DNA of 64,000 nt, from the NCBI GenBank assembly GCA_963787835.1, contig CAWBEI010000002.1:1632001-1696000 (forward strand), written 5' to 3'. The notes under the pieces were generated by a model. That model was not told where the DNA came from, made no database searches, and saw nothing but the letters and a program-made list of their open reading frames with translations. Position numbers and translations under genes: made by a program. Origin of the DNA: Ignavibacteriota bacterium (GTDB taxonomy: Bacteria; Bacteroidota; Ignavibacteria; Palsa-1295). Shown here in pieces: positions 32,392-36,684 of the stretch. The stretch's first letter is position 1, and every line of letters starts with the position of its first letter.

Positions 32392-32463
32392 GGATGGGAT
32401 TTAACGCAAAAGCGGGATAATCATTCGAGTGGAACCGCATTTTTGGTGGATTGTTCAGATTTC

Positions 32464-33990
32464 ATGCGAAGTGTTCTTGGAATTATTATAGTTACGCTGC
32501 TTTCGATGCAAGGTACTGCGAATGGGCAGTTTCACGAAGAGCCTATCTCTACGAATGTGCCACATGAAACCATTCCTCTCGATAGCCTCATTCACTATCC
32601 GGAGGCAGCCTTACATGATCGAATTGAGGGCAAGGTGGAGCTACAGGCTACGGTGGAAAGGGACGGCTCTGTCAGCGAAGTCACGATCGAACATTCTTCA
32701 GACCCCATTTTCAACGCGGAGGCGATTCGTGTGGTAATCGTTTCCCATTTTGAATATCCCCTTTCGGAGGAATCGCCACGGGTTTCCTTCCTGATCGGTC
32801 GAACCATCACTTTCGATCTGAATAATAAGCGGAGCCTTATCACTACTTCGCGTTACTCTACCGAATGCCGTTTTTTGGTAGTGGATAGATGGACGAAGGC
32901 GCGTGGGTTGATCTGCGAAGACAGCGAATTTCAAAACCATGCTATGTTCAATCCCGTCGATTTTTACCCGCATGAGACCGTTCCGCTCGATAGCTCTATT
33001 CACTACCCGGAAGAAGCCGTGAAGAATCGAATCGAGGGTTCCGTAGATGTAGCGGCGGTGATACGTTCGGATGGTTCTGTTAGTGGAGTCAAGATAGAAA
33101 GGTCCTCGAACCCTGTTTTCAACACGGAAGCAATTAGGGTAATGATAACAACCAAGTTCGAGCACGACCCGAAGAACAAGTCGGCTCTTGTTTCCATGCT
33201 GATCGGGCGAACGATAACGTTCGATCTTAATAATAAGCGCAGCATTCTGACGCTGTCGCACGTTGAAGATGAATACAGCATGTTGGTCCTGGACGGATGG
33301 TCAAAGAAGAAGGGCCTAATTTATGATGACAGCAAGGTTCGATACATTTCCGATGCGAATCCCAGTGATTTTGAATCTCATGAGATCATCCCTCTCGATA
33401 GCCTAATTAGGTATCCGAAAAAAGCAAGAAAAAAGCGAATAGAAGGGGATGTGATAGTTCAAGCGCTCGTTGACAAGGATGATGGTTCTGTTAGTAAAGT
33501 CGAAATTTTTAAGTCTGATGATTCACTACTAAATGAAGAAGCAATTCGAGTAATAAAGGCAGCAATTTTCAGCCCATCATCAGGGAATGGGTGGGAGTTG
33601 AGAACTTTACATTTTCGGTTGAAAGCTAATCCGAATGCCTACAAGACGGCATCCCCCATAAAATACGAGGACGGATATAGCCAATTTGCTGCTGGCGGAG
33701 GTGAGCCAAACGAGCTTATCCCACTCGAAAAACTAATTCACTACCCCGAAGTAGCTCGAAAAAATGGGATCGAAGGGAAGGTGACACTTCAAATGCTCAT
33801 TAATAAGGACGGTTCTGTGGGTAAGGTCGAGCTTCTTAAAACAACAGATTCCGTTTTCAATGAAGAGGCAATTCGTGCAATGAAATCGGCGCACTTCACC
33901 CCGGCGATGCAGAATGGTACCCCGCTAAAAATTTGGATTACACGCACGATCAATTTTAGGTTAAAGGATATACCAAAGCCCCAAGAATAA
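32464..33990 (+). CDS. Secreted protein with four tandem TonB C-terminal domains
   Basis: Four 'YPE.A....IEG.V.....I..DGSV..V.I..S....FN.EAIR' units. Signal peptide from ATG 32464. Confidence 0.88.
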   Translation: MRSVLGIIIVTLLSMQGTANGQFHEEPISTNVPHETIPLDSLIHYPEAALHDRIEGKVELQATVERDGSVSEVTIEHSSDPIFNAEAIRVVIVSHFEYPLSEESPRVSFLIGRTITFDLNNKRSLITTSRYSTECRFLVVDRWTKARGLICEDSEFQNHAMFNPVDFYPHETVPLDSSIHYPEEAVKNRIEGSVDVAAVIRSDGSVSGVKIERSSNPVFNTEAIRVMITTKFEHDPKNKSALVSMLIGRTITFDLNNKRSILTLSHVEDEYSMLVLDGWSKKKGLIYDDSKVRYISDANPSDFESHEIIPLDSLIRYPKKARKKRIEGDVIVQALVDKDDGSVSKVEIFKSDDSLLNEEAIRVIKAAIFSPSSGNGWELRTLHFRLKANPNAYKTASPIKYEDGYSQFAAGGGEPNELIPLEKLIHYPEVARKNGIEGKVTLQMLINKDGSVGKVELLKTTDSVFNEEAIRAMKSAHFTPAMQNGTPLKIWITRTINFRLKDIPKPQE

Positions 33991-34129
33991 ATCCTAAGGA
34001 AAGCTACCCGATAGGAAATCAATTATAATGAAATCGAGAATCTTTGCGATTCAGAGATCATATTTCCCTGAAATTTTTTCCAAATACCCGGAACTCCTTG
34101 GCGCGTGATGTGATTTATTAGTATAGCTT

Positions 34130-34580
34130 GGGGGATTGCGGGTCAAAATTGCTAATGACGACCGCACCGATTCCTAAAGTCCGTTCGATCGGGTACGTAT
34201 AAAGCGATTATAGAGCGCGGCCAGCATAGTGGCGCTCAGAGTGGGGACCGGCACAGGCAACACTCCCAGACGAACACTCACCATCGGTAACCAGAGTCTT
34301 TTACTCTCAAAGTAACGATCAAGAACTCAAGGTAGCGATTAAGAGGATTGTGGATAAGCCCGTATGATCGATCATAACATGCTTGCCTGAAATCAGCAAG
34401 CTCTTGAAACTCGGATCGACAGTTAGCTCGGGAGGTCGAGATTCATTGCGGGATCTCCTCTACTCCTGCTTCGTAAAAATTTACTTCATCGTCACCGGAT
34501 GGTTAGCCTTAGAGAAACCCTCGAAGGTCATTCGGATTCGACACGAAAGAAACCGATAGGTGGCTTTCGGATTCCCTTTT
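34130..34580 (+). ncRNA. Putative large structured non-coding RNA of unknown class (~450 nt)
   Basis: No ORF in the track; about 10 local hairpins; long-range pairings; promoter-like TTGGCG (34098) and TATAGC (34122) upstream. Folded by eye only. Confidence 0.55.
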
Positions 34581-34644
34581 AAGAACCGTTCACATCCACC
34601 CCAATGGATTCAAACGATAGAACAATCGAACATAATATCACACC

Positions 34645-36684
34645 ATGATCACAATTATTGGCGGAGGCTTTTCCGGCCTTTCCGCAGCCTATTTTCTTCA
34701 CCGCGCCGGCAAAGAGGTTACCCTCCTCGAATGGTCCCGCAGTCTCGGCGGCCGTGCCTCCACTCGTAATGTCGGTTACCGGACGATGGATTCCGGCGCC
34801 CAGAGGATCGATCTTTCCCCGCTGGCATCCAATCAACTTGAAACGAATGCCCGAGCATTACTTCGCGCCGTGGCGATCGAGCGCGGCGTGCTTCAACACG
34901 CATTGCCATTTCCACCACCGGTGTTCCGGTTCGATGGTCGCTCCATCCAGACGGCACATGAGGTAGAAGTGCCGAACTGGTCCTATCTCGAAGGCGGCAT
35001 GAAAGTGCTTGCCGATGCTCTTGTCAAAGATGTTCCGGTGCGCACCCATACGCGCATCAGCGATATTGTTATTGAAAAGGATAAGTATCAGCTTCGCAAT
35101 CAGCGCGGCGAGATGACGCCCTCCGACGGAGTGGTGATCGCACTGCCTGCGCCCTATGCGCTGGCGATGCTGCTTCCACATGCCGAAAAGAATAAGAAGA
35201 TCAAGCGAATCACCGATCTTTTTAACGATGTGAATTACGAGCCGATGATCGGCGCAATGTTCGGCACGACGCGCATCGATTTTCGTGAGCCATTCACTTC
35301 TCTTTTCACGGATGATGTGACCGCTCCGATCTTCTGGCTTTCGCAGGAAAGCCGCCGGCGTCCGCTTGGCGTTCGCCAGGATGAAATGGCGTTCGTGCTC
35401 CAGCTTGGCGCGGAGATCAGCCGCGATTACGTACTGAAATCGGATAAGGAAACCTTCATTGCCGTCGAGCGGGTGTTCGAAGAAGTGCTCGATGTCGCGC
35501 TTCCGGATATTGTGTATGGAGAGATCCAGCGGTGGCCGGCTGCATTCCTTTCGTCATCGCCGTTTACGGTCGATACGATCAAAGAGGGCGAGTTCAAGGT
35601 GCCGCTTTATCTTGCCGGCGATTATATTGCCGGACAAAGTTCCATGGCATCCGCATTCTGGAGCGGCAAGCAGATCGCCGACCGTTTAGCGGGCGTCGAT
35701 ACCTTCCAGTTCATCGAGAATCCAGCGCGCGAGCAAGCGCGGCTCAATGAGGAGGACTGGAAAGCCGTCGTTCCGCCGATGCGGCTTCCGCGCAAATCCG
35801 TGCGGCCCATTCGCAAGCATGCCGATAAGAAGTACGATGCCGAAAAGGGCAAGCGGGTATTCGTCCCTCGCGAGAAAAGGGAGAAAAAGAAATTCGAAGG
35901 CCGACCGTACGGCTCACGTCCCCAGGGGCGTTCGCAAGGCCAGCGGAGGGGCGGCCCACCCCGGCGCGGTCCGGGAGGGCCACCACGTCAGGGCGGATGG
36001 CAGCAAGGCCCGCGCCAGCAATCGAGCAGGCCGCGTCAGGGTGGTCAGGGAGGCTACGCGCCACGCGGTCCGCGACAATATGGTGGAGGCGGACAGCGAG
36101 AAGGCGGTTATGCGCCACGCGGCCCACGACAATATGGAGACCAGGGCCCACGCCAGTATGGTGAACAGGGACAAGGTCGCAGTTATGGTCAGCGCTCCGG
36201 CGGAGGCGGTCAAGGTTATGCGCCACGCGCTCCACGTCCGGCAGGACAAGATCGTCAGTGGGGTGGTGGCGGAGGTCAGGGACGCTCTTATGGTCAAGGC
36301 CAAGGCCAGCCACGGCAATATGGGCAAGGTGGTGGCCAAGGCCGTTCCTACGGTCAGGGCGGAGGACAGGGCCGCTCGTATGGCCAGGGGCAAGGCGGCG
36401 GATATAATCAGGGTCGCCCACAACGTCCGCGCCCGCAGGGAGAACGATCGAATTACAACGGCGGCGGATACCGTCAGCCTCGCGATAACGGTGCGCCTTC
36501 GCAAGGCCCGCGCCAATATGGCAGTCGCGGCGGTGGACAGCAGAGCGTGTATTCCACCAACGTTCGCCCACAACCACGCGGAGATCGCGGCGGCTATGAT
36601 CAGCAGCCCCGCACCAGCGGCTTCGAACCACCCATGCCGCGCCGTCCGCGCCGCCCGGAGGATGATTCGATCGGGAACCGATAG
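34645..36684 (+). CDS. Renalase-like FAD-dependent oxidoreductase fused to a long G/Q/R/Y/P low-complexity tail
   Basis: 'ITIIGGGFSGLSAA', 'LGGRASTR', 'DSGAQ', 'QRWP', 'LAGDY...AFWSG' in the first ~350 aa. Repeats GYAPRGPRQYG and GQGRSYGQ in the tail. Confidence 0.88.
   Translation: MITIIGGGFSGLSAAYFLHRAGKEVTLLEWSRSLGGRASTRNVGYRTMDSGAQRIDLSPLASNQLETNARALLRAVAIERGVLQHALPFPPPVFRFDGRSIQTAHEVEVPNWSYLEGGMKVLADALVKDVPVRTHTRISDIVIEKDKYQLRNQRGEMTPSDGVVIALPAPYALAMLLPHAEKNKKIKRITDLFNDVNYEPMIGAMFGTTRIDFREPFTSLFTDDVTAPIFWLSQESRRRPLGVRQDEMAFVLQLGAEISRDYVLKSDKETFIAVERVFEEVLDVALPDIVYGEIQRWPAAFLSSSPFTVDTIKEGEFKVPLYLAGDYIAGQSSMASAFWSGKQIADRLAGVDTFQFIENPAREQARLNEEDWKAVVPPMRLPRKSVRPIRKHADKKYDAEKGKRVFVPREKREKKKFEGRPYGSRPQGRSQGQRRGGPPRRGPGGPPRQGGWQQGPRQQSSRPRQGGQGGYAPRGPRQYGGGGQREGGYAPRGPRQYGDQGPRQYGEQGQGRSYGQRSGGGGQGYAPRAPRPAGQDRQWGGGGGQGRSYGQGQGQPRQYGQGGGQGRSYGQGGGQGRSYGQGQGGGYNQGRPQRPRPQGERSNYNGGGYRQPRDNGAPSQGPRQYGSRGGGQQSVYSTNVRPQPRGDRGGYDQQPRTSGFEPPMPRRPRRPEDDSIGNR

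Follow-up and report, generated by a model that had tools for sequence, protein, structure and literature searches.

The window is a stretch of 64,000 nucleotides from an Ignavibacteriota bacterium, and the region of interest, 34130..34580, lies in the gap (33991-34644) between a TonB-domain gene and a flavin-oxidoreductase gene, both on the same strand. The upstream gene (window 32443-33990) encodes one protein with the TonB C-terminal domain four times over. As for the downstream gene, its product matched the Pfam Amino_oxidase domain (6.8e-22) and renalase (PDB 4zcc, 6e-19), and it ends in a tail rich in Gly, Arg, Gln and Tyr, as do the full-length orthologues that were translated. At two active-site positions of renalase, presumably His232 and Arg280, the flavoprotein (window 34645-35700) aligns Gln and Phe, so that it may not be a true renalase; a literature search on renalase catalytic residues returned nothing. 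In agreement with the initial annotation, which described the region as ORF-free, no ORF of at least 80 aa occurs there until 34579, and the longest sense uORF of the leader is 27 aa. The features of the locus are the following:

34090..34115, + strand: conserved promoter-like element, GGAACTCCT-N13-GATT, with a predicted transcription start near 34122-34126 (~34124)

34122..34644, + strand: predicted 5' leader of ~520 nt, ORF-free and without a terminator-like site, fold z -2.8

34146..34211, + strand: 5' domain, a UUGCU/AGCGA helix around block B, which is the hairpin GUCCG-UUCGAU-CGGGU

34276..34320, + strand: block C with a GAG/CUC hairpin (the AGAGT/ACTCT stem of the initial annotation), 53-91% identity in five relatives

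34277..34281, + strand: the CUCAC box in intact form, with CGGUAA after it; at 34263-34267 there is a drifted copy, CUCCC

34321..34475, + strand: variable middle with species-specific hairpins, 20-43% identity in relatives

34476..34484, + strand: A/U-rich linker AAAAUUUA, 67-89% identity in five relatives

34494..34539, + strand: hairpin E, the best conserved, with a CCGGAUGG/UCAUUCGG outer stem, a UUA bulge and a variable apex

34568..34593, + strand: 3' segment, forming in relatives a small hairpin with a CCCUUUU loop; a degenerate start-proximal box, UUCAC, at 34589-34593

34645..36684, + strand: downstream gene, a renalase-like flavin oxidoreductase domain with a tail of ~300 aa rich in Gly, Arg, Gln and Tyr

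When 60 relatives were searched directly with the DNA of the region, two of them gave short matches, and homologues were therefore gathered by anchoring on the downstream protein; BLASTN found no second copy of the region in its own genome. Orthologues of the flavoprotein gene occurred in 28 of the 35 genomes of the family (family here meaning order), and a metagenome scan added further orthologous loci. Once three near-identical leaders had been left out, 27 non-redundant leaders remained, each of them (27/27) 283-646 nt long. The upstream neighbour differs among the relatives, being a TonB gene, a divergent membrane-protein gene, the end of a ribosomal-protein operon or others (names that we assumed from the translations), so that the region goes with the downstream gene.

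Regarding the start of the transcript, the promoter given in the initial annotation, TTGGCG...TATAGC, was not conserved in relatives, nor did a sigma-70 scan list it; the conserved element is the one at 34090-34115, which we take to be an ECF-sigma-like consensus. Within the genus, GGAACTCC stands 345-678 nt upstream of the ATG in every one of the 13 regions that are complete, with an ATT-like word 13 nt further on; other genera carry AAACT-N16-18-GTT instead. The pattern GGAACT/AAACT-N16-18-(G/A)TT, written after the sequences had been viewed and applied after removal of three exact duplicates, occurred in 30 of 36 regions, at 316-678 nt upstream of the ATG; two of the six regions that lack it are cut contigs. 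In this genome, the only one scanned for terminators, no terminator-like site turned up on the + strand ahead of the ATG. In run X1 (contigs only; it includes a record of 80 kb, so DNA may be present), one contig covers 33707-34542 at a depth of 6.7, like the neighbouring contigs. Elsewhere in the window's own genome (G000), GAAC-N17/18-GTT precedes 6 of 47 tRNA genes, against an expectation of 0.55 and a single case on the reverse strand, and TAnnTTTG only 1 of 47; the ECF-like consensus may be a general promoter in the lineage. Short tandem repeats of 7 nt (AATTCTT and ATACTTC types), often arranged as inverted arrays, lie directly upstream of many tRNA genes of G000.

Conservation of the leader depends on the distance at which it is viewed. 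Of 26 orthologous leaders, 4 align with it, over 22-33%, and the other 22 are unalignable, whereas the control, rnpB of the same genome, was alignable in all four relatives compared (4/4), over 99, 99, 90 and 71% of its length. Within the six-sequence clade, blocks B (34179-95) and E (34494-539) have 79-100% identity in four of the five relatives and 50-71% in the remaining one; the spacers have 4-43%, and the fourfold-degenerate sites of the adjacent gene, compared in three genomes, 49-59%. As a per-block range, block B is 71-100% identical in five relatives against the 49-59% of the fourfold sites. Judged by these identities, blocks B and E are evolving non-neutrally, and conservation above the neutral expectation, seen in these two blocks and in the CUCAC enrichment reported below, is shared with the class of cis-regulatory structured leaders.

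The same clade keeps part of the structure. Hairpin E retains 8, 8, 8, 8 and 6 of its 8 pairs in five relatives and the block B hairpin 5, 4, 5, 5 and 3 of its 5, counts that rest on a MAFFT alignment and are thus lower bounds; the GAG/CUC core pairs of block C are possible in 6/6 clade members, and RNAalifold keeps 28 pairs, mainly those of hairpin E. The ensemble probability of the 5' domain (34146..34211) is low in most sequences. Since the clade helices are nearly invariant, they show little covariation, and what the relatives confirm of the conservation and covariation that the initial annotation had in view is a set of clade-level blocks with a kept hairpin, not a family-wide fold. Two block models, R2 and R3, matched only their four training genomes among 35, once each and at the flavoprotein gene; R3, the model of hairpin E, had one copy in each of them. 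Three weak extra matches to R2 and R3 were rejected as paralogues, all lying within long ORFs. A pattern scan for hairpin E gave 18 matches in the genome contigs, of which 17 fell under open frames of at least 130 aa and did not adjoin the gene, the 18th being a homologue already in the set, and it gave 0 matches in the viral contigs.

As for the variable middle, its stem at 34381-401 carries 6 substitutions in a relative of 94% identity (run X1), where 7 of the 8 pairs are nevertheless kept and two pairs are changed on both sides; the same relative also breaks predicted pairs elsewhere. This segment contains a palindrome that recurs genome-wide, ATGATCGATCAT being counted 22 times over both strands. 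Palindromes of the CATGAnYGRTCATG type (window 34365-34376) were counted 41 times over both genome strands, and they are inserted in leaders and even in rnpB.

All the complementarities listed for 34130..34580 in the initial annotation are present in the sequence, with one stem, TGCGG-GTCA/TGAC-CCGCA, reading exactly TGCGG-GTCA with TGAC-GA-CCGCA; several of these pairings face competing alternatives and do not prevail in the ensemble. The 5'/3' stem (34131-36 with 34571-76) has a P of ~0.65, and the hairpin of the 3' segment competes with it here. The region folds better than its dinucleotide shuffles, if only modestly (z -2.07; 3 of 100 shuffles did equally well); z is -2.8 for the 522-nt leader, and it falls below -2 in only 5 of the 27 leaders. 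The two distant contacts that had been proposed, the long-range pairing of 34279-88 with 34552-62 and a P4-like pairing reminiscent of RNase P, fared poorly in the five relatives, which keep 0, 3, 0, 0 and 0 of 10 pairs and 0, 3, 0, 0 and 0 of 7 pairs, respectively, again as lower bounds.

Across the 27 non-redundant leaders, CUCAC is the most enriched 5-mer: it is present in 26 of them against 9.0 expected, with 58 copies against 11.3, and these counts, like the other leader counts, are inflated by kinship, though most leaders do not align. Its reverse complement has 4 copies against 6.2 expected; CUCAU is two-fold enriched (24 copies, 11.8 expected), and CUCAA, CUCAG, UUCAC and AUCAC show no enrichment in the leaders. 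The genome-wide upstream background of CUCAC is 0.77 per kb without strand bias, and the leaders of RRM genes contain it in 6 of 30 cases against 7.8 expected; the flat background and the unenriched RRM-gene leaders together indicate that the word is specific to the flavoprotein gene. A regulon shared with the RRM genes was rejected on the latter count. The leaders of RRM (PF00076) genes (L077, L119, L124, L131-L133 and others) share conserved U-rich blocks of their own.

Regarding its placement, 17 of 27 leaders, and 14 of the 17 of the genus type, have a CUCAC box 15-70 nt upstream of the ATG, box spacing is highly variable, and CUCAC-N2-4-CGG(U/G) is common to 9 of 27 leaders, 4 of them from another genus. 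The window's own genome has a single intact CUCAC in its leader (34277-81), the start-proximal box being UUCAC. Over all leaders, CUCAC is enclosed in a hairpin in 25 of 56 cases and control words in 64 of 145, hence without preference, and it is slightly more accessible than the controls (p 0.016).

A different, compact motif occurs in genera g2 and g7, in the form of a GCCGGAGG/CCUCUGAGC helix with a bulged A, followed by a hairpin; the bulged-A helix is 99% paired, and its changes are one-sided only. All 10 leaders of this second group place the box, or a variant of it, in a loop of 7-10 nt closed by stems of 3-10 bp whose sequences differ, which points to recognition as RNA. The model of the compact motif matched 9 of 151 genomes of the class, all of them training genomes and once each at the flavoprotein gene, and it had no match in the leader of this window. 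The motif, in single copy and with UCUCAC in its hairpin loop, is found in leaders L044-L055, L062 and L066 (genera g2, g6 and g7), and it is a cleaner experimental target than the leader of this window. It has no match in Rfam, and a resemblance to glycine riboswitches was set aside for want of such support. A literature search on Kapabacteria noncoding RNA, on bacterial CUCAC leaders and on renalase with RNA binding found nothing relevant, and supplementary survey tables could hold the g2/g7 motif.

Taken together, the region is best explained, with a probability of about 0.6 on the sequence evidence, as the long structured 5' leader of the renalase-like gene with its RGG tail, whose CUCAC boxes are predicted to be bound by a protein that would repress translation. 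This reading fits three points: the region travels with the gene, no terminator precedes the ATG, and a CUCAC box adjoins the start codon in relatives; a constant place 5' of one gene family, in the same orientation and with no terminator between, is also what characterizes cis-regulatory structured leaders. The initial annotation had proposed either a new large ncRNA or a complex leader; the leader fits, and a large ornate ncRNA akin to RNase P is unsupported. In the proposed mechanism, transcription would start at about 34124 and run into the ORF; local hairpins would hold the CUCAC boxes apart and partly exposed, and a protein sitting on the start-adjacent box would block ribosome entry, thereby repressing translation. 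The leader evolves fast, and its large size and most of its stems in the window's own genome are probably a lineage-specific elaboration.

As for the protein that would bind the boxes, the motif is confined to a single gene whose protein carries an RNA-binding-like tail, which suggests feedback regulation; the product of that gene is deemed the most likely binder, although we advance it only tentatively and at less than even odds; RGG tails are usually not sequence-specific, which counts against it. The next candidate would be one of the three RRM proteins encoded in the genome. Nova-type KH domains prefer UCAY; among the candidate binders of this genome, no cold-shock domain and no KhpA/B were found. 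The Bacteroides RRM protein RbpB is reported to bind RNA in single-stranded form and to show some preference for sequence (10.1101/2021.04.27.441718). Should the leader reading be true, CUCAY would be an undescribed bacterial RNA recognition word, and the flavoprotein-RGG fusion found across the family would acquire a concrete RNA target.

Other explanations have to be weighed against this leader. The boxes might act at the DNA level, as CTCAC direct repeats for a transcription factor set in a weakly constrained spacer with incidental stems, given that most leaders fold no better than shuffles, that 22 of 26 orthologous leaders are unalignable and that the orientation of CUCAC could be inherited; however, the spacing of the boxes is too variable to sit easily with this idea, differing complementary stems close the loops in all 10 leaders of the compact-motif group, and both the two-sided changes in stem 34381-401 and the persistence of hairpin E speak for RNA, so that we hold it to be rather unlikely. 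Somewhat similar in standing, and improbable in our view, is a discrete RNA of ~450 nt, closed by the 5'/3' helix and cut from the transcript to serve as the dedicated partner of the RGG-tail flavoprotein (cf. Y RNA/Ro60, OLE). The neighbouring protein with its RNA-binding-like tail, the strong block conservation within the clade and a 5'/3' duplex that can be drawn in 6/6 clade members (P ~0.65 here) would suit it; yet cognate 5'/3' duplexes do not outdo non-cognate ones (rank 114 of 720; permutation p 0.68 over 27 leaders), the length varies from 283 to 646 nt, and no fold is shared family-wide, unlike that of rnpB. Equally improbable is the variant in which a processed stable RNA would scaffold the RGG-tail protein via CUCAC, yielding a lineage-specific ribonucleoprotein or condensate whose RNA binding the flavin domain might render sensitive to redox state or NAD(P)H.

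A conformational switch, responding to a metabolite, temperature or a protein and opposing hairpin E to the long-range helices B:E3' and C:E5', would find some backing in the 5/6 clade members where both long-range helices (5-6 bp) are possible and in the two ensembles that favour one of them (P 0.6 each). It is doubtful to the same degree, because the long-range state is less stable by 3-14 kcal/mol in 5/5 sequences tested, is lost in the relative G009 and shows no two-sided change, and because neither an evident expression platform nor a match to a riboswitch model was found. As for a degenerate second RNase P RNA, AAAG-U-CCG can indeed pair with UGGCUUU around a bulged U; that pairing is not conserved, the region had no match to the family at E up to 10, and a canonical rnpB (204 bits) exists elsewhere, which makes this the most improbable of all, with odds close to nil. 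The region gives no evidence for a new ribozyme-scale RNA.

These conclusions can be set beside the known RNA families. Rfam assigned no family to the region: nothing passed the gathering thresholds, and a search relaxed to E up to 10 brought up only two chance snoRNA fragments; 18 orthologous loci gave nothing above a gathering score, and known riboswitch aptamer models matched neither the region nor these loci. Canonical rnpB and ssrA, sought elsewhere in the genome, are both present and lie on another contig: the single match to RNase P RNA is at C3:317721, and tmRNA (RF00023) scores above its cut-off at C3:311840 (87 bits), ARAGORN finding no tmRNA within the window. Bacterial RNase P RNA type A (RF00010) is comparable to the region in size (~450 nt) and through a chance P4-like AAAGUCCG motif; the leader differs in having no conserved P4 partner and no match to the model, at gathering or otherwise. 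OLE, ROOL and GOLLD are likewise of similar size, rich in stems and ORF-free; no match to their models or to other Rfam large ncRNA models was found in the region. All the intramolecular stems of these three RNAs are reported to be supported by covariation (PMC12286853), whereas those of the leader are mostly species-specific, with neither such support nor the family-wide covarying multi-helix fold expected of a stand-alone ornate ncRNA.

Another close likeness is with the protein-bound regulatory leaders of genes for RNA-binding proteins, such as the ribosomal-protein leaders and the Chlorobi-RRM motif (RF01697), although the RF01697 model has no match in the window's own genome, and compared with the leaders in Rfam, none of which it matches, this one is much longer, has a clade-dependent architecture and precedes a gene for a flavoprotein fusion. 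In both cases, a structured 5' element in single copy stands before one gene with an RNA-binding-like product and carries a short recurring recognition word, likely for translational control, which for the present leader is a prediction; its distinctive trait is that the five-letter word is kept while the structure around it is rebuilt clade by clade.
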